DNA of 64,000 nt from Candidatus Gottesmanbacteria bacterium (lineage in GTDB: Bacteria > Patescibacteriota > Microgenomatia > 2-02-FULL-39-11): contig JACPKY010000002.1 of NCBI GenBank assembly GCA_016186795.1, positions 350,748-414,747 of the forward strand, written 5' to 3'. The notes beneath the pieces were generated by a model that saw only the letters and a list, made by a program, of their open reading frames with translations, did not search any database and was not told the origin of the DNA. Of this stretch, positions 168-12,175 are shown one piece after another. The position numbers were made by a program, and so were the translations under genes. The stretch's first letter is position 1; each line of letters begins with the position of its first letter.

Positions 168-830
168 TTAGAGACGGAGTCCTATTCTACTTATCATTCT
201 GCCACCTTTTTTGCCTTCTCGTCTGTAAGAAAAATATTCTTGATGACAAGAAGTACAGATTGAAACATCGTCAATACGCTTTGATCTTACTCCCATTGAC
301 AGAAGATTTTGCGTGGCAATTTGTCCTAAATCTAAATACCATTTTCCCTTACGGTAGAAGCTAACTTTTCCTAACCCGTTTTTCGCAAATTTGTCAACAC
401 GCCCCTTGTCTACAGAGTAACAGCATGACTCAATATGAGGCCCAATGGCAATAACCATAGAAGATGTATTGCCACCGTATGTTTGAAACTTTTTTACTGC
501 TTCTTGAATAATGCCTGCATATAAACCTTTCCACCCAGCATGGAGAGCACCGACAATTTGAGCGATTGGATCGTAAAGGAATATGGGTAAACAATCGGCT
601 GTTCTTACTCCTAGATCCAAATGGTCAACGTCAGTTATTATCCCATCATATCCCTTTCCCAGAGAGTCATTTTTCCCTTTTAGAAAAAGCACTTTTTTCC
701 CATGTACCTGCTCAACCATTGAAAGGGGGGGCTTTTTTTGCTTTGACGCAATGGTAAATTGTTGATCAGATCGGTCAGGGAAAATATGAAATACTCCCTT
801 AAACGTTTGCAGAAGTTTTGACTGTATCAT
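168..830 (-). CDS. pgeF: YfiH/PgeF-family laccase-domain protein (DUF152; peptidoglycan editing factor / purine nucleoside phosphorylase-like)
   Basis: 220 aa with conserved HAGWKG and CxxC-H motifs typical of the YfiH/DUF152 family. It sits at the end of the dcw cluster. Confidence 0.8.
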   Translation of the reverse strand: MIQSKLLQTFKGVFHIFPDRSDQQFTIASKQKKPPLSMVEQVHGKKVLFLKGKNDSLGKGYDGIITDVDHLDLGVRTADCLPIFLYDPIAQIVGALHAGWKGLYAGIIQEAVKKFQTYGGNTSSMVIAIGPHIESCCYSVDKGRVDKFAKNGLGKVSFYRKGKWYLDLGQIATQNLLSMGVRSKRIDDVSICTSCHQEYFSYRREGKKGGRMISRIGLRL

Positions 831-2072: not shown

Positions 2073-3776
2073 TTATGAGGGAGAAACATTCAGGTAGGAG
2101 AAAATTTCCTTTGCGGTGGCAAAAAAAATGGGAGCTGCTGTTTCAGATCCCCACGGAGATGATGTTGGCTCCTGTATGGTTACCAGCATAGTAAATCGTG
2201 GGCTGTCAACTGGGCCGAAACCAACGAATGAGGCAATTGTTTTATCGCTGTCGTAATGGCCTGCAATTGGAATTTGAGCAGTACCCGTTTTTCCGGCGAT
2301 ACGAAATCCTGGCGGCTTTAGCCGTCTTGCCTCTCCACTATCGACAGCAGATACCATCATTTCTGTCACTATTCGAGCCACCTCTGGTCGAAAGACGGTA
2401 CGATCGACGTGGGGACCAATGGAAATCACTTCGCCTGTATCGAGACGAATTTCTTTTACAACGTATGGCCGCATAAGTTTTCCGCCGTTGGCAATTGCGG
2501 ATACCGCACGGACCATTTGAAGAGGTGTTACGGCAATTCCCTGGCCAAAAGAAGCTGTGGCGTAATCAATCTCATACCACATGCCTTTCGGCCTGAGATT
2601 CGGAGTCGATTCATCCTGCAAATCAATACCTGTAAGACTACCAATTCCCAATTCAGAAAGATACTTCAAAAAAACAGTATCCTCGAGGGTTTTCTGAACC
2701 ATAACCATACCAACGTTTGAGGAATATTGAAGAATTTCCGTTGGTGTTACCTCCCCATGATATTTTTGGTTCCAAGTACGAATCGTGAATCCTCCAATTT
2801 CAATCGGCCCATCTTCTTGAAACTTCATTGTAGACGTTATCTTCCGCTCATTGAATGCCGTCGCCATAACAAGAGTTTTAAATGTTGATCCCGGCTCATA
2901 TGATGCAGAAACTGCAGGGTTTTTATAATACATCTCTGGATAGTCAATAAAATCATTTTGGCCGTATGAAGGGTAGGATGCCATAGCGAGAATTCCACCC
3001 GTAATCGGATCCATCACGATAACGGTACCTCCTTTGGCACCGTAACGGGCAATTCCTGCTTTTAGGTTCTTTTCGACAATAAACTGTATTGTTTTATCAA
3101 GGTAAAGAACTAAACTCCTACCATTTTTTGGCGGTATGTTATTTCGATTCCCAGAAAGTATGGGGTTGCCGGAAGCGTCTACTTCCTCCCGAACTACACC
3201 ATCAACTCCCCGCAACTGTTCATCGTAATATCCTTCAATCCCAAAGTATCCTTGGTCATCACCTTTTGAGTTTTTTCCAACAAATCCAAGTAAATGTGCC
3301 GACATTGAACCTTCTGGGTAAAATCGTTTTGACTCTTCGGTAAAACTTATACCGGAAGCCAAGGATGCTTTAATACGCAATACGTCCTGTTCCTCAACCT
3401 TGTGTTTAATTGGAACCCATACGGAAGAAGACGATATGTGGGAAGAAATTGTCGATTCGGGAATATTAAGTATTTGCGAAAGCGCTGATATAGATTTTGA
3501 AACATCCGTTGACTTTGATGGCTCGATATAAACTCCAAATGCCTCCTGGTTAATAACAAGAGGACTACCGTCAGAGGCGAAAATTTCACCTCGGAGTGCA
3601 GGAATGGGAAGCTTCGTGTTTCGCTGTTTCTCAGCCTGCCCTCCCAATTCATCAGAGGAGAGAACTTGCCAATAGAATAATCGAAAAAGAATAAGGAGGA
3701 AAAAAATGACTATGCTTAAATATACTGCATGAATTCGCCATACCATATTACAATCGTAATTCGTGACCAATGGCAA
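2073..3776 (-). CDS. ftsI: Penicillin-binding protein 2 / FtsI-type peptidoglycan D,D-transpeptidase
   Basis: N-terminal TM anchor, SxxK (GSTFK), and the KTGT motif (AGKTGTAQ) of the transpeptidase domain. Position is after ftsL in the dcw cluster. Confidence 0.85.
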   Translation of the reverse strand: MPLVTNYDCNMVWRIHAVYLSIVIFFLLILFRLFYWQVLSSDELGGQAEKQRNTKLPIPALRGEIFASDGSPLVINQEAFGVYIEPSKSTDVSKSISALSQILNIPESTISSHISSSSVWVPIKHKVEEQDVLRIKASLASGISFTEESKRFYPEGSMSAHLLGFVGKNSKGDDQGYFGIEGYYDEQLRGVDGVVREEVDASGNPILSGNRNNIPPKNGRSLVLYLDKTIQFIVEKNLKAGIARYGAKGGTVIVMDPITGGILAMASYPSYGQNDFIDYPEMYYKNPAVSASYEPGSTFKTLVMATAFNERKITSTMKFQEDGPIEIGGFTIRTWNQKYHGEVTPTEILQYSSNVGMVMVQKTLEDTVFLKYLSELGIGSLTGIDLQDESTPNLRPKGMWYEIDYATASFGQGIAVTPLQMVRAVSAIANGGKLMRPYVVKEIRLDTGEVISIGPHVDRTVFRPEVARIVTEMMVSAVDSGEARRLKPPGFRIAGKTGTAQIPIAGHYDSDKTIASFVGFGPVDSPRFTMLVTIQEPTSSPWGSETAAPIFFATAKEIFSYLNVSPS

Positions 3777-7051: not shown

Positions 7052-7702
7052 TTAATATGAGGCCAAATGAGATAGTACACGTCCACGCTCCTGTTTTAGT
7101 TGAAACGATTCTCCATGACCAGGATAAATAGAAGTCTCATCTGGTAACGCAAGAATACGGGTTAACGATTTACGCATATCCTCGGCACTACTATACGAAA
7201 AATCAGTTCTCCCTATTCCTCCACCAGAAAAAAGAAGATCGCCGCAAAAAAGACGCTGTTCATTTTCTACAGAAAGACAAACACTCCCAGGAGTATGTCC
7301 AGGGGTTCCCAGAATATTTATATTGATAGTCCCAAATGGAAAAGATTTTCCAGACAATAAATATGTATCAACACGTGGAGGTGGATCGACAGTAGTTCCA
7401 AGAAAATATCGTGCTGACTCTCGCATATTGTTGACAAGAAATGTATCATCTTTATGCAGTAAAAATGGAATTGAATAGGCAAGCTTCAACTCAGTAACTC
7501 CTAAAATGTGATCGAAATGACCATGTGTTGCAATAATCCCAATTGGTTGACAGTTGAGATCGGAAATTCTCCTAATAATAAAGTCTGCATCATCCCCTGG
7601 ATCAATAATCAGGGAATGATGTGTTTGAGAATTAACGAAAAGGTAACAGTTTGTTGAAAGTGCACCTACCCGTAAGGTGAAGATTTGAAGCGTAGGCTTC
7701 AT
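7052..7702 (-). CDS. MBL-fold metallo-hydrolase (glyoxalase II-like)
   Basis: The HxHxDH motif (ATHGHFDH) and downstream His/Asp ligands place it in the metallo-beta-lactamase superfamily. Confidence 0.8.
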   Translation of the reverse strand: MKPTLQIFTLRVGALSTNCYLFVNSQTHHSLIIDPGDDADFIIRRISDLNCQPIGIIATHGHFDHILGVTELKLAYSIPFLLHKDDTFLVNNMRESARYFLGTTVDPPPRVDTYLLSGKSFPFGTININILGTPGHTPGSVCLSVENEQRLFCGDLLFSGGGIGRTDFSYSSAEDMRKSLTRILALPDETSIYPGHGESFQLKQERGRVLSHLASY

Positions 7703-8154
7703 TGAAGTTGATACGTTTTATGAAAGACGGAAACGCCTGTTGGAGAGTTAAACTTAAGAGATAGATCAATACTGGTAACTCCACTATCGTAGACGCATTT
7801 TCCACTGCTACAAGTTCCTAAAACGATGTCGCTACGAACTATTTCTGTCTCACCGTTTGTTGTAATTTTGCCAAGAACTCCTCGTGGAAGACCGGCTCCT
7901 GTAATATATGTTAATTCATATTCGACTGTTTCGACAGTACTTGGTATTCCAACTATCCGAAGTCTCATGACTCCTGAGGAAACATTTGTCAGCTCAACAG
8001 TGATACTATCTGAAATTGTCGGAAAGGCAACCGTCGGGGTAGGTTCTCCCTCTTTTTTCTCTTGTATGTTTGATGCTCCTTTGAACCAAAGTCCCACAAG
8101 GATAGCGACAATAATAACGCCTACAATTGATGCTCCAAGGATAATTTTTTTCAT
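7699..8154 (-). CDS. Hypothetical membrane-anchored protein (N-terminal TM followed by a beta-rich extracytoplasmic domain)
   Basis: 151-aa ORF with N-terminal hydrophobic helix (IILGASIVGVIIVAILVGLWF). It is translationally coupled to the flanking genes. No recognisable family. Confidence 0.45.
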   Translation of the reverse strand: MKKIILGASIVGVIIVAILVGLWFKGASNIQEKKEGEPTPTVAFPTISDSITVELTNVSSGVMRLRIVGIPSTVETVEYELTYITGAGLPRGVLGKITTNGETEIVRSDIVLGTCSSGKCVYDSGVTSIDLSLKFNSPTGVSVFHKTYQLQ

Positions 8155-8159
8155 GAGGA

Positions 8160-9524
8160 TTATTTCTCCAACCGATCCTTAATATAGTTTACAATATTTG
8201 GGATTTTTACTCTATCTTGTTTCATGGTATCACGATCACGAATCGTTATAGCATCATCGTCAAGAGTCTGGTGATCGATTGTTGCACAAAAAGGGGTACC
8301 AATTTCATCTTGAGCAAAGTATCGCTTCCCAATATTTCCTCGATCATCCCAAGTGGCAGAAAAAAATGGCTTCAGGTTTTTATAAATAGTATGCGCTTTT
8401 GTCACAATCTCGGCATTATTTGCTACAAGGGGAAAAACTGCCACTTTGTACGGAGCAAGCCTTGGATGTAAACGAAGGACAATACGCTTTTCTTCTTCTA
8501 CAAAACTATCAATCAAGAAAAAGAGAGTAGAACGATCAACCCCTGCTGATGATTCAATATCCCATGGGATGTATTCTTCGTTTCTTTCCAGATCTTTATA
8601 TCGTAAATCCCGGCCACTATACTCTTGATGACGCCTCAGATCCCAATCACCACGATGATGAATTCCCATAAACTCCGACCAACCCCAGGGAGCATTGTAT
8701 TCAATATCGGTTGCCGCCCGTGCATAATGGGCCCGTTCAGAAGGTGCATGGTCTCGAAATCGAAGATTTTCTTTCTTCATGCCCAGTTTTAGATACCACT
8801 CCATCCGGTTATCCTTCCAATATTGAAACCACTTTTCGCCTTCTTTTTCATCAGGTCGAATATAGTACTGTACTTCCATCTGTTCAAATTCTCGTGAGCG
8901 GAATGTAAAGTTTCCGGGAGTTATCTCATTTCTGAATGCCTTCCCGATTTGTGCGATACCAAAGGGAATCTTGATACGAGTTGAGTCAACAACGTTTTTA
9001 AAATTCACGTGGACTCCGTTGGTAATTTCGCCTCGTAGATAGATTTTTTCTTTTGGTTCGGTTACTCCGATTAGAGATTCAACCAAAAGATTAAAAACTC
9101 TCGGTTCTGTCAATTTCTCCAATGCATGAGGTTTTCCATTACTACAGATAAATAAATCTTGATATTCTTTTTTAGGTGCAACGTTTCCCACACCTACTGG
9201 CACACTTTTCAAAAATTCCTTAAAATGATCTTCTCTAAACCTTTTATGGCAAATTTTACATTCAACTAATGGATCTACAAACGCTTCAACGTGACCTGAT
9301 GCTTCCCACGCTCGTGGGTTCATCATGATTGCTGCATCCACTCCAACAATATCATCGCGAAGGCTTACCATATCTTTCCACCATTCGTCTTTTACGTTTT
9401 TTTTCAAAAGGCAACCAACAGGACCATAGTCCCATGTTCCCCCTAATCCCCCATATATTTCGCTACCAGGAAAAATAAATCCCCTTCGTTTACTAAGACT
9501 AACTATTTTTTCAAGTACATCCAT
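8160..9524 (-). CDS. glyQS: Glycine--tRNA ligase (class II, dimeric GlyQS type). The listed ORF start at 9554 is a TTG inside the leader terminator. The ATG at 9524 (MDVLEKIVSLSKRRGF...) is the more likely start.
   Basis: N-terminus EKIVSLSKRRGFIFPGSEIYGGL and overall 455-464 aa architecture are typical of the alpha2 GlyRS. Confidence 0.9.
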   Translation of the reverse strand: MDVLEKIVSLSKRRGFIFPGSEIYGGLGGTWDYGPVGCLLKKNVKDEWWKDMVSLRDDIVGVDAAIMMNPRAWEASGHVEAFVDPLVECKICHKRFREDHFKEFLKSVPVGVGNVAPKKEYQDLFICSNGKPHALEKLTEPRVFNLLVESLIGVTEPKEKIYLRGEITNGVHVNFKNVVDSTRIKIPFGIAQIGKAFRNEITPGNFTFRSREFEQMEVQYYIRPDEKEGEKWFQYWKDNRMEWYLKLGMKKENLRFRDHAPSERAHYARAATDIEYNAPWGWSEFMGIHHRGDWDLRRHQEYSGRDLRYKDLERNEEYIPWDIESSAGVDRSTLFFLIDSFVEEEKRIVLRLHPRLAPYKVAVFPLVANNAEIVTKAHTIYKNLKPFFSATWDDRGNIGKRYFAQDEIGTPFCATIDHQTLDDDAITIRDRDTMKQDRVKIPNIVNYIKDRLEK

Positions 9525-9537
9525 AAGAAAATTTCCA

Positions 9538-9568
9538 CAAAAAAACTCGTCCAAGTATTAGGGACGAG
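9538..9568 (-). terminator. Rho-independent terminator, the expression-platform terminator of the glyQS leader. On the minus strand it is CTCGTCC, a 9-nt loop, GGACGAG, then seven T.
   Basis: A perfect 7-bp GC-rich stem followed immediately by a run of seven T on the minus strand. It ends 14 nt before the glyQS ATG. Confidence 0.6.
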
Positions 9569-9676
9569 TCCTTTGATTTCACTTAGGATCCGCGGTTCCA
9601 CCCTGTTTCCCCCCGATTCCTTCGGGGGACAACTTTATTTCCGATACTCCCCTATGCCTTTAGGATCGCCGTATCA
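9538..9676 (-). promoter_or_regulatory. T-box riboswitch-like leader of glyQS. It has a short stem I candidate, a stem III hairpin, the T-box sequence AAACAGGGUGGAACCGCGG, and an intrinsic terminator.
   Basis: Minus-strand 9590-9608 reads AAACAGGGTGGAACCGCGG, matching the T-box core AGGGUGGNACCGCG with UGGA (partner of tRNA-Gly UCCA). A stem III-like hairpin is at 9609-9628. The terminator is at 9538-9568. A candidate specifier hairpin (9643-9675) carries GGC followed by A. The element lies directly upstream of an aminoacyl-tRNA synthetase gene. Confidence 0.55.
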
Positions 9677-9681
9677 GTCTC

Positions 9682-9709
9682 ATTATATCGAAGATGTTAC
9701 TCTTGTCAA
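9682..9709 (-). promoter_or_regulatory. Near-consensus sigma70 promoter for the glyQS leader. On the minus strand it is TTGACA, a 16-nt spacer, then TATAAT. The -10 element overlaps the recO stop codon.
   Basis: Minus-strand TTGACA corresponds to plus 9704-9709 and TATAAT to plus 9682-9687. The predicted +1 is near 9675, giving a roughly 150-nt leader. Confidence 0.5.
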
Positions 9710-10240
9710 GAGACTATTACTTTTCAATTTTGTCTCAAGGATGTGTTCAAGAAAGCTTTCAAGTTTTTGACCCTCAATAGTTGTCGTACGAGGAAGATAC
9801 CCTAGTTCCCATAAAAGATTATGAGTGAAATCGAAAGACACGGTCTCGAAGTTACTTCCTTTGTTGGAAAGCATACGAAACGATTGCAGAAGTATTGGAA
9901 AAATAGTGATGTGGACCTCATTCTCCGGACAAAGTCGATCCACCTGTTCGACGATCCTATAAGCAAACGCAATACGGCGAATGTCTTTCCGAATGCGAGA
10001 AAAAATTTCAAGAGAAGTTGCCTCAATGAGAATTGGAATCGAGGAAGAGGAAGCAACAAACCCTTGGATATGGCGGAATAATTCAAGATGAGAAGCTTTT
10101 CGACTTGTGACCTTTCGAACACCTTTTGCTATAACAGTTAATTTCCCGTGACTTCGAGTAAAAAGAGTTAGAAGCTTATCTGCTTCTCCAATATTTGCTC
10201 TTTTGAGAACCACTGCCTCAATCTTGTAATACCCATGCAT
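9683..10240 (-). CDS. recO: DNA repair protein RecO (short form)
   Basis: N-terminal OB-fold region (EAVVLKRANIGEADKLLTLFTRSHGKLTVIAKGVRK) matches the RecO N-domain pattern. Confidence 0.75.
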   Translation of the reverse strand: MHGYYKIEAVVLKRANIGEADKLLTLFTRSHGKLTVIAKGVRKVTSRKASHLELFRHIQGFVASSSSIPILIEATSLEIFSRIRKDIRRIAFAYRIVEQVDRLCPENEVHITIFPILLQSFRMLSNKGSNFETVSFDFTHNLLWELGYLPRTTTIEGQKLESFLEHILETKLKSNSLLTRVTSSI

Positions 10241-12175
10241 TTACGTATTTATGAGAAGTTTTTTATCTTCATTGAGGACAAATTTTTCAACCTCGCGACC
10301 ATTAAGAAAGAGAGAATATGAATACCCGTCTGTCCCTGGTTGTTTTTGAATAAGAAGTGGATATTTTTCACCCTTCTTAAAGGGAGTTGCGAGCGTATAT
10401 GTAATTTTTACCTCTGATTGACCCTGAGGATTTACTTTCAGAAATCCTTCAAAGACAGTTTTTCCTAACTCATCATAGACTACTGGAGAGACCTCTGATC
10501 CTGTAAATTCAACCAGCTTTGCCCCTTGCGGAACGTACACTCTTACCCAATTTCGTAAAATCCCATTCAGACAAAGTTGACCAGCCTCAAGGTTGCAATT
10601 ACTCGCCGGAGATGGGTTCTTATACAATATGGTCACCGTTTTTTTTACCGTTCCGTTGGCCTCTATAGCTATTTCTTGTTTCACATCGTGTTTGACAAAA
10701 ATATTTGATTTTGCACCAGCAAAGTTCACATTGTTTATGTGAAGGTAATCACCGTCGAACGGAACTATTCGTCCTGCAAATCCAACAGCTTCTATTCCCT
10801 TTTGTGCTTCTTCGTCATGAAAATAGAACAATACATGTTTTTCTCTCGCTTCTGTTAATAACGTTTGAAACAATTTTCCCCAGTACTGCGATGGAGAAAC
10901 ACCAAGAGCTCTCTGCATGATCTGATAAAGAAGCACCCCGATAATGTCTTTTCGATCTTCTCGAACATACGCAACAGGTCGTGTTGAGTAATCCTCAAGC
11001 TCATATACTGCTTTGGGACAATCACAACGAGGATCATTTTCTGCGCTAAACGACCGACCATAGACGTTAAACTCTCCTAAAATTTTGATCGCCGATGCTA
11101 ATACATGGGTATCAACAGTGATAATACCATCAAACGTTGGAAGGTCAGCACCAGTTGACTTTACCAAGCTCTCAAACTCATTCATCGAAACAACGTAATC
11201 AGGCGAAAGATTGCTATCGCGAAGTTGATACTTCGTCACACCAACATGGTATGTCAATATGGGTTTCGGGGGAGACGGAGCAGTCTTCTTTGACTCATCT
11301 AGCTTGTAAATATCATCTGCTTTTAGAACCTTCATCTTCCCTTTATCAATATTAAAAAGAGCATATGCTGTCATAAATCCTCCTGTTGCCCGAAGCTCAG
11401 CATCGTTTTGGAAAAGTACGAGATACGTCCTTGATCCCTTTGTCCCTAAAATATCCGGAAGACGTTTCAAAAGAGGCTGTGCTTGGACAAAAAGTTGTGC
11501 AGTCTGGGCAAAGATATCTTTGACACTTTTTAGACGCGAACGAATGACAACAGAACCAAGTTTTTCCGGATATCGGTTCGGATCAATTTGATCAAGTTCA
11601 CTGCCTACAATTGCTACTTTATCGCCGATTTCACCAATTTTGGGTGTGACCTTATCGAGTGTTTCGACAGCTGTCTGAATTCTTTGATCTGCAGATCCAG
11701 AAACAAACGTTGATTTGCCTTTGAGTCCCAAAAGATCAGCATATGGAATAACTGTATCAGCAGTAATCTCTGCAGCTTGTACACCAGCGACAGCTCCTTT
11801 TACTATGTGTTCAAGATCTGCAATATAAAGCCCTGCAAACGGTATATGTTTCATCCAGACCATCCTACCTAAGCTTTCCTCTACCTTCGCAAGATCTTTC
11901 TCTACTTGACGGAATTTTTCGGAAGCTTGTTCAATATCTTGGGATTTTACTGCTTGAGATGCTTCCTGAGCGCTTTTGATTGTTGTCTGAAAATCTGCAT
12001 ACAATGCCTGTCCGGGAAGTACCACTCCAAAAAAAGAGAAAAGACCCAAAACAACGAGAAGAACCAAAACAATGGCAAACCATTTTTTCCTACGTTGAGG
12101 TTTTTGGGCCGTCTTATCAACATTCTTTTCTTCAACCGGGGCTACCCCTATATCAAGTTTTTTAAATCCATCCAT
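10241..12175 (-). CDS. Large N-terminally membrane-anchored extracytoplasmic protein (possibly DUF4012 family)
   Basis: 644 aa with a basic N-terminus, one TM helix (WFAIVLVLLVVLGLFSFFGVVL), then a long soluble region. It lies immediately upstream of the initiating sugar transferase. Confidence 0.4.
   Translation of the reverse strand: MDGFKKLDIGVAPVEEKNVDKTAQKPQRRKKWFAIVLVLLVVLGLFSFFGVVLPGQALYADFQTTIKSAQEASQAVKSQDIEQASEKFRQVEKDLAKVEESLGRMVWMKHIPFAGLYIADLEHIVKGAVAGVQAAEITADTVIPYADLLGLKGKSTFVSGSADQRIQTAVETLDKVTPKIGEIGDKVAIVGSELDQIDPNRYPEKLGSVVIRSRLKSVKDIFAQTAQLFVQAQPLLKRLPDILGTKGSRTYLVLFQNDAELRATGGFMTAYALFNIDKGKMKVLKADDIYKLDESKKTAPSPPKPILTYHVGVTKYQLRDSNLSPDYVVSMNEFESLVKSTGADLPTFDGIITVDTHVLASAIKILGEFNVYGRSFSAENDPRCDCPKAVYELEDYSTRPVAYVREDRKDIIGVLLYQIMQRALGVSPSQYWGKLFQTLLTEAREKHVLFYFHDEEAQKGIEAVGFAGRIVPFDGDYLHINNVNFAGAKSNIFVKHDVKQEIAIEANGTVKKTVTILYKNPSPASNCNLEAGQLCLNGILRNWVRVYVPQGAKLVEFTGSEVSPVVYDELGKTVFEGFLKVNPQGQSEVKITYTLATPFKKGEKYPLLIQKQPGTDGYSYSLFLNGREVEKFVLNEDKKLLINT

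Follow-up and report, generated by a model that had tools for sequence, protein, structure and literature searches.

T-box riboswitches have been arranged in a scheme of four classes (PMC10482949). Class I has a long stem I with a platform together with a stem II; Class II is glycine-specific and has a long stem I with a platform and a single-stranded linker; Class III, known from actinobacterial ileS, has a short stem I with the specifier in an apical loop of 5-6 nucleotides (nt), requires stem II and is translational; and Class IV has an intermediate stem I (PMC10482949). It has been reported that tRNA binding is augmented by the platform, by the S-turn of stem II, or by both (PMC10482949), and the need for fast capture of tRNA is held to be the reason why T-boxes that control transcription have kept the platform (PMC10482949, PMC7583486, PMC5951919). 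The engineered delta-DTM glyQS T-box, from which the distal platform was deleted, still binds tRNA, with a lifetime of ~29 s and an on-rate that is 2-fold lower, and this result was read as evidence for the importance of the platform in transcriptional T-boxes (PMC5951919). The leader described here precedes glyS, a glycine--tRNA ligase gene, in a stretch of 64,000 nt from Candidatus Gottesmanbacteria (contig JACPKY010000002.1); the whole stretch is called the window below, and positions are counted from its first letter. A T-box with an ultrashort stem I had been proposed for this leader from the sequence alone (the original prediction).

It is highly probable that this leader is a T-box riboswitch that is specific for glycine, attenuates transcription and decodes the tRNA with a minimal arm, the binding of tRNA being the predicted part of this reading. 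The elements of the riboswitch, two mutually exclusive folds, covariation throughout a family of related leaders, a glycine-related regulon and, on one contig, a matching tRNA-Gly(GCC) with U73 were all observed. The family joins a stem I of the Class III type to a linker of the Class II type and a terminator, and it has neither of the two modules that augment tRNA binding.

Architecture of the glyS leader

The gap between recO and the next gene is 158 nt long on the minus strand and houses all the elements named in the original prediction. The features of the locus are as follows.

9683-10240, minus strand: recO, the upstream gene, whose 3' end bears the glyS promoter (TIGR00613, 97.9 bits)
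9704-9709, minus strand: -35 box TTGACA, half of the sole 12/12 promoter match
9682-9687, minus strand: -10 box TATAAT, enclosing the recO stop codon TAA (9685-9683)
9641-9677, minus strand: ultrashort stem I, 37 nt, from the fold and an ungapped alignment of homologues with covariation
9655-9658, minus strand: specifier GGC (9658-9656, a glycine codon) and conserved purine A (9655), GGC-A being retained in the loops of pattern-independent copies
9631-9640, minus strand: single-stranded purine-rich linker AAAUAAAGUU, ~10 nt without a helix, from sequence and fold
9605-9633, minus strand: stem III, with core UCCCCCGA (9629-9622)/UCGGGGGG (9616-9609), loop AGGAA, an outer GUU/AAC extension and then an AA flank
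9590-9608, minus strand: T-box sequence AAACAGGGUGGAACCGCGG, with the UGGAACC bulge at 9600-9594
9560-9604, minus strand: antiterminator, from the alignment to the Rfam T-box model RF00230 and a constrained fold of -10.5 kcal/mol
9539-9569, minus strand: intrinsic terminator, ACUCGUCC (9569-9562) with GGACGAGU (9552-9545), then seven U (9545-9539)
8160-9524, minus strand: the regulated gene glyS, an alpha2-type (single-chain) glycine--tRNA ligase of 454 amino acids (aa) (NF003211, TIGR00389)

The promoter is present as predicted: TTGACA and TATAAT are separated by a 16-nt spacer, the stop codon of recO falls within the -10 box, and no other 12/12 match occurs in a scan of positions 9000-10300. 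The transcription start is predicted at ~9675, about 7 nt past the -10 box and at the foot of stem I, so that the upstream space is too small for a longer stem I. The downstream gene had been taken for glyQS; its product matches NCBIfam NF003211 with 575 bits and TIGR00389 (glyS_dimeric) with 472 bits, and the gene is an alpha2-type glyS. Its start codon is the ATG at 9524, since homologues open with an equivalent M-D-x-x-E-K-I-V-S-L, and independent gene calls on public contigs also give a product of 454 aa. The same homologue N-termini and gene calls rule out the TTG at 9554, which had been considered as a possible glyS start that would make the hairpin coding.

Stem I had been recognised as a short hairpin at 9643-9675; the hairpin is real, but its extent is slightly wider (9677-9641) and its kink-turn (K-turn) had been overlooked. 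The basal C-stem has 5-7 base pairs (bp), with CUGAUAC (9677-9671) pairing with GUAUCGG (9647-9641), and is followed by a 3-nt bulge, GGC (9670-9668), and by tandem G.A pairs formed from GA (9667-9666) and GA (9649-9648). The upper helix of 5 bp, UCCUA (9665-9661) with UAGGG (9654-9650), begins with a U.G pair and carries a six-base apical loop, AAGGCA (9660-9655), closed by A-U. GGC and the following A occupy the 3' side of this hexaloop (9658-9655), and the GGC-A that had been reported in the loop of the hairpin is thus confirmed. The succession of C-stem, 3-nt bulge, tandem G.A and a helix starting with a non-Watson-Crick pair is the sequence pattern from which K-turns are known; in T-boxes, a bulge with GA/GA at the base of stem I is called the 'GA motif' and marks a K-turn by sequence, and the K-turn geometry would be expected to follow. 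The bulge is 3 nt long in every family member, and as the first helix pair above the K-turn, 28 of the 33 distinct sequences have U.G and the remaining 5 a non-standard pair. By sequence and fold, the window leader has no AG bulge, distal loop, elbow-binding platform or internal specifier loop, and likewise no stem II and no IIA/B pseudoknot.

Two further sites were tried as specifier and rejected. The GGA-A at 9637-9642, named as an alternative in the original prediction, sits in non-conserved linker sequence that is free to vary among homologues, and the second GGC (9670-9668) is the variable K-turn bulge, which differs freely among homologues.

The linker carries a motif, AAUnAAG, that is conserved across the family. 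The hairpin that follows had been described at 9609-9628 as resembling stem III; it is present, with its core at 9629-9609, and stem III folds with -16.8 kcal/mol. The AA flank on the 3' side of stem III is invariant in 29 of 29 sequences and was not set by the search pattern, and the flanks follow the purine rule 5'-RRRxG ... AA-3' (PMC11404447). The T-box sequence with its UGGA lies where it had been placed and contributes a 7-nt bulge, UGGAACC (9600-9594), which fits 5'-UGGNACC-3' and is situated between helix A1, AGGG (9604-9601) with CCCU (9563-9560), and helix A2, GCGGAUCCU (9593-9585) with AGGACUCGU (9572-9564). In the window leader, helix A2 is lengthened: it has four extra pairs and ends in a 12-nt loop. 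Terminator and antiterminator share a strand, the 5' arm of the former being the 3' strand of the latter (9572-9560), with 9569-9560 common to both folds; a clear antiterminator is available, and its pairing and that of the terminator are mutually exclusive, as had been anticipated. The terminator is ~5 kcal/mol more stable than the antiterminator (-15.7 vs -10.5 kcal/mol) and ends 14 nt before the ATG at 9524, so that the start region lies outside the hairpin. This strong terminator with seven U, also foreseen, was verified by folding, because the terminator scan had a loop limit of 8 nt and passed over the actual loop of 9 nt. The 3' half of the leader is a standard T-box discriminator with the usual default-off design.

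Compared with the described classes, the leader resembles Class II T-boxes of the B. subtilis glyQS type in its GGC-A specifier and in a K-turn that lies a few bp below the specifier (PMC10482949, PMC11404447), as well as in the single-stranded linker that replaces stem II, the purine-flanked stem III, the UGGAACC bulge and the transcriptional terminator/antiterminator switch. Unlike in Class II, nothing of stem I remains above the specifier: there is no S-turn internal loop, and no AG bulge or distal loop to form the interdigitated double T-loop platform that stacks on the tRNA elbow. The loop that holds the specifier is instead a closed hexaloop. Against RF00230, the window scores 28 bits and its relatives 36-46 bits, compared with ~82 bits for a long-stem-I copy at one related locus (L097). 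With Class III (Nocardia farcinica and Mycobacterium tuberculosis ileS) the leader shares a short platform-less stem I with a K-turn at its base (PMC10482949, PMC7583486) and an apical loop of five or six nucleotides, very close to the 5' end, that presents the specifier. The resemblance to the ileS leaders of actinobacteria that had been pointed out holds for stem I but goes no further: to bind tRNA, Class III requires a stem II containing an S-turn together with the IIA/B pseudoknot, and both are absent here, as is translational control (PMC10482949); where Class III is specific for isoleucine and sequesters the ribosome-binding site, the window leader has a glycine specifier and an intrinsic terminator.

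Two other systems are close in single respects. The core of delta-DTM glyQS is likewise a glycine T-box with tRNA contacts limited to the anticodon and the 3' end, as they would be in the window leader; unlike the window family, which is natural and conserved and has a terminal specifier loop, it is a laboratory deletion in which the internal specifier loop is kept and the ultra-stable complex is lost. The Staphylococcus aureus glyS T-box also belongs to a gene for an alpha2-type glycyl-tRNA synthetase (GlyRS), and its antiterminator/terminator domain is enlarged by an insertion (PMC4574755, PMC9177973), a feature comparable to the lengthened helix A2 of the window leader; but its stem I is of full length, and the inserted stem Sa, which is lineage-specific, far exceeds the A2 extension in size.

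Homologous leaders, covariation and regulon

A GlyRS protein search of species-representative genomes gave 80 loci with 57-74% identity, all of them in metagenome-assembled genomes (MAGs) of the candidate phyla radiation (CPR)/Patescibacteria type, with Daviesbacteria, Levybacteria, Woesebacteria and Microgenomates among the source groups. Many of the best GlyRS matches come from MAGs titled 'uncultured Gammaproteobacteria bacterium' (L001, L002, L004, L007 and others); these rank among named Patescibacteria MAGs at similar identity, and the titles look unreliable. A leader of the same layout was found at four of the 80 glyS loci (L007, L015, L038 and L062). A covariance model, R1, was run on the window and on the 80 glyS loci, which were not pattern-selected; its matches were confined to the window, these four loci, L056 and L035, the last with two tandem copies, so that no second T-box was found by R1 in the 64-kb window. 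The leader of L056 (209-291), upstream of glyS, is a variant with the same stem I, no stem III and the bulge UGGAAAC, not UGGAACC.

Metagenomic DNA was searched with a pattern in which both GA dinucleotides, the A-U closing pair and the loop A-n-GGC-A were fixed, the first GA had to be followed by a pyrimidine, and GGGUGGAACC had to occur 35-60 nt downstream. Of the 45 loci returned, ten (L083, L084, L085, L092, L098, L100, L102, L105, L119 and L123) were set aside as chance matches in coding DNA, mostly GC-rich, without the helix and the basal stem; nine of the ten have no downstream U run. The genome and metagenome matches and the window together make up 35 distinct leaders of the same layout. 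Nearly all homologues have the ~10-nt spacing between stem I and stem III and no stem II. Of the 34 leaders with enough upstream sequence, 27 have a TTGACA-type promoter, with 11-24 nt between the end of its -10 box and the K-turn GA, and the usual transcript is therefore a short one that begins at the foot of stem I; ahead of the basal stem, the homologues have unrelated sequences. When the sequences were folded one by one, stem III, a bulged antiterminator and an overlapping terminator were obtained in the full-length leaders folded, with the exception of L086, whose sequence ended early at an internal U run.

Covariation in homologous leaders, which had been proposed as a check, is seen in every helix across the 35 distinct leaders. 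Because a MAFFT alignment of the full leaders misplaces stem III and the terminators, the analysis used an ungapped stem I alignment (39 columns, 33 distinct sequences), an alignment truncated at the antiterminator, and per-sequence folds. The three helix pairs that the search pattern had left free are formed in each of the 33 sequences; every one of them is represented by 2-4 types of pair, and no change affects one side only. The two C-stem pairs adjoining the bulge are also formed in all 33. In stem I, 78.8% of cells are paired, against 61.5% in shuffles, and the covariation score is 0.505, against 0.196, with 0 of 500 shuffles as high; when the partners were slid, the score was 0.10-0.16. 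For the leader through the antiterminator, 89.5% of cells are paired, compared with 68.1% after shuffling, and the score of 0.584 (0.215 shuffled) was again equalled in none of 500 shuffles. Two-sided changes occur in stem I, stem III and A2: all six pairs of stem III covary in the family, and helix A2 covaries, for example as GCGGG/CUCGU vs GUCCC/GGGAU. An internal control was provided by 7 distinct chance matches to the same pattern, which have 0-2 of the three free pairs and no basal stem, whereas 40 of 40 family matches have all three. The comparison of homologues confirms stem I and the GGC specifier and supports the T-box with an ultrashort stem I that had been predicted.

Stem III differs in one part of the family. 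In a sub-family it has 7-8 bp and a loop of 14-15 nt with a conserved UGGA(Y)nnnCAU-like motif; its members are L081, L086, L090, L097, L108, L114 and L125, and the second copies of L094, L096, L103, L108 and L116. The UGGA in this loop is the same tetranucleotide as the binding site for the tRNA 3' end, and the loop of the window leader, AGGAA, is without it. The motif could give a further contact to the tRNA, take part in a pseudoknot or form a T-loop-like element.

R1 also found, on the metagenomic loci, second, tandem copies that lie outside the search pattern. The apical loops of the search-independent copies read CUUUGGCAA, CUGGCAA and GUGGCA; as these copies carry GGC-A without matching the pattern, the specifier is kept where it was not imposed. 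GA/GA likewise recurs in the search-independent copies L035, L094#2 and L108#2. In the second copies of L096, L103 and L116, the K-turn GA of the bulged strand reads UA. Tandem ultrashort glycine T-boxes, each with its own terminator, are thus present in several leaders, as listed here.

L035, 2380-2493 and 2548-2660: tandem ultrashort pair
L094, 772-875 and 925-1047: tandem ultrashort pair, the same as in L109
L096, 10537-10641 and 10686-10805: tandem ultrashort pair, similar in L103 and L116
L108, 1164-1275 and 1327-1451: tandem ultrashort pair

The tandem copies might compensate for weak tRNA binding by a single copy. Two glyA leaders are also double, with a near-canonical long-stem-I glycine T-box and, directly after it, an ultrashort copy: in L097 the long copy (381-578, minus strand; RF00230, 81.7 bits) is followed by the ultrashort one at 202-347 (minus strand), and in L114 the upstream copy (3214-3326, minus strand), seen as a partial R1 match only, is followed by the ultrashort one at 3020-3173 (minus strand). 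The occurrence of a long and an ultrashort copy in one transcript of one organism suggests that the short form arose from the long one by deletion.

The genes downstream of the leaders are mostly glyS genes for alpha2 GlyRS; several are glyA, serine hydroxymethyltransferase (NF000586, 391 bits), and one is purU, formyltetrahydrofolate deformylase (TIGR00655, 397 bits). All three genes are tied to glycine or one-carbon metabolism. Two loci are off this pattern: the leader of L108 precedes a 301-aa protein without a family match, and in L087 a GIY-YIG-like open reading frame of 105 aa (MAGTRNFYVYILTN...) starts 67 nt after the T-box match (2687-2787), where glyS would be expected, and may be a mobile-element insertion. 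The contig of L108 carries a tRNA-Gly with anticodon GCC, A37 and discriminator U73. As the fourth base of the bulge would match the discriminator, UGGA predicts U73, and U73 is what is seen in this tRNA-Gly(GCC) of L108.

Proposed mechanism and competing explanations

The RNA would start ~7 nt past the -10 box, at the foot of stem I, and its first domain would be a basal helix, a K-turn and a 5-bp helix under the hexaloop A-A-G-G-C-A. GGC would form a loop-loop kissing contact with the GCC anticodon of tRNA-Gly, and the A that follows it would stack beneath this pairing; the single-stranded linker of ~10 nt would lead to stem III with its purine flanks and then to the UGGAACC antiterminator. 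When the tRNA is uncharged, its UCCA end would pair with UGGA and stabilise the weaker antiterminator, and RNA polymerase would read into glyS; when the tRNA is charged or absent, the stronger terminator would form and transcription would halt 14 nt before the ATG. Glycine codon-anticodon pairing consists of three G-C pairs (PMC11404447), and we infer that these, with the contact to the 3' end, suffice without an elbow contact or a stem II contact. By analogy with the platform-less glyQS T-box, which still binds tRNA (PMC5951919), tRNA binding by the minimal stem I would be physically plausible. As judged from sequence, the chances are evenly divided as to whether the family represents a fifth natural T-box architecture, spread through CPR/Patescibacteria, in which co-transcriptional sensing would depend on a 3-bp kissing contact from a K-turn hairpin and a 3'-end contact, with no platform or stem II.

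Several points weigh against this interpretation. It has been stated in a review that the platform is generally required by transcriptional T-boxes (PMC7583486), and tRNA binding by a truncated hairpin-type stem I without stem II was barely detectable (PMC7583486, PMC10482949). No tRNA genes were found in the 64-kb window, so that the host's own cognate tRNA-Gly is unseen there. The invariance of the A-A-n-GGC-A-U loop and of the GA dinucleotides in the metagenomic set has no weight, since the pattern had fixed them. The element is present in only six of the 80 related CPR glyS loci, and in the nearest relative, L001 (74% GlyRS identity), recO abuts glyS and the leader is absent, so that the element is dispensable; the presence of the T-box at only six loci indicates that it was lost or gained repeatedly while the recO-glyS synteny was kept. 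More generally, among the closest relatives (L001-L004) the region ~300 nt ahead of the GlyRS match (locus position 3001) contains no leader, and recO reaches or overlaps the glyS start.

The Rfam result belongs among these points as well. At gathering thresholds, no family matched in the whole 64-kb window; in a permissive local search of 9450-9800, RF00230 matches 9557-9733 on the minus strand with 28.2 bits (E=1.3e-4), far under its gathering score of 93, so that the suggested RF00230 check returned a match, but one below the threshold. Its alignment places stem III, AGGGUGGAACCGCG and CUCGUCCCU (T-box sequence and antiterminator) with high posterior probability and drops ~90 model positions of stem I, and the score is low because the stem I and stem II positions are missing; the relatives score 36-46 bits. 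The original prediction had been accompanied by two grounds for rejection, namely the lack of an RF00230 match together with the lack of an antiterminator, and a glyS start at the upstream TTG; since there is a sub-threshold match with an antiterminator and since glyS starts at the ATG at 9524, both of them fail.

A rather unlikely alternative is that the leader is a working T-box whose stem I alone is too weak, and that a trans factor (a K-turn-binding protein of the L7Ae family or another protein) or tandem duplication adds affinity. The very weak tRNA binding of a hairpin-type stem I on its own (PMC7583486) would agree with such assistance, as would the doubling of several leaders, whether as two ultrashort copies or as a long-stem-I and an ultrashort one; however, the window leader and most glyS leaders are single-copy. 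The K-turn, with GA/GA and the 3-nt bulge, is strictly kept, including in the three pattern-independent copies named above, but for most members the GA dinucleotides were set by the search pattern, no candidate protein was identified, and B. subtilis glyQS functions in vitro without K-turn proteins (PMC11404447).

It is considerably less probable that the leader is the decaying remnant of a T-box, which has lost the distal part of stem I, no longer senses tRNA and serves as a constitutive or otherwise-regulated attenuator. The patchy distribution (six of 80 related loci, with the nearest relative lacking the element), the reduced CPR genomes and the sub-threshold Rfam score would fit such decay, but compensatory changes are found in every helix across 35 diverged leaders, the GGC-A loop is invariant in unconstrained copies, the AA flank of stem III and the UGGAACC bulge are invariant, and the regulon is glycine-only over three different genes. 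Finally, there is scarcely any likelihood of an ordinary long-stem-I glycine T-box that reaches into the recO coding region with a transcript starting further upstream: the RF00230 alignment does extend to 9733, and a 6-bp AGUCUC/GAGACU pairing spans the promoter region, but this alignment deletes 90 stem I model positions and puts the model's stem II over the promoter, a perfect promoter lies immediately upstream, as in 27 of 34 homologues, the homologues have nothing in common ahead of the basal stem, the hairpin is a closed structure of its own with covarying pairs, and true long-stem-I copies score ~82 bits and look different.

Surrounding sequence and significance

Upstream of recO, a 644-aa protein is encoded at 10241-12175 on the minus strand; an NCBIfam search with it gave no match, and public gene calls assign it to Pfam DUF4012. 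A family search with the 151-aa protein encoded just downstream of glyS (7699-8154, minus strand) likewise gave no match. The G+C content of the window is ~0.41 at its left end and falls to ~0.35-0.38 at the right. Other weak Rfam matches (Mn riboswitch, Vimentin3, Pedo-repair and others) have E values of 0.16-5.5 and were taken as chance. No report on T-boxes in CPR/Patescibacteria, or on this architecture, was found in the literature, the coverage of which was incomplete, so that a prior description is possible.

If the family does represent a fifth architecture of this kind, both augmenting modules would be dispensable for a terminator-based T-box, and the leader, which measures ~115 nt between its 5' end and the antiterminator, would be the smallest natural tRNA-charge sensor. 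With a conserved natural family that is without either module and yet has a terminator switch, it could be tested directly what an mRNA needs at a minimum to recognise tRNA, and structural studies and the engineering of tRNA sensors would gain a very compact scaffold. The T-boxes of uncultured lineages are probably under-counted, since leaders of this kind fall below the curated threshold of the standard Rfam model. For the organisms themselves, it would mean that the sensing of tRNA charge persists in some of the ultra-small genomes of the CPR.

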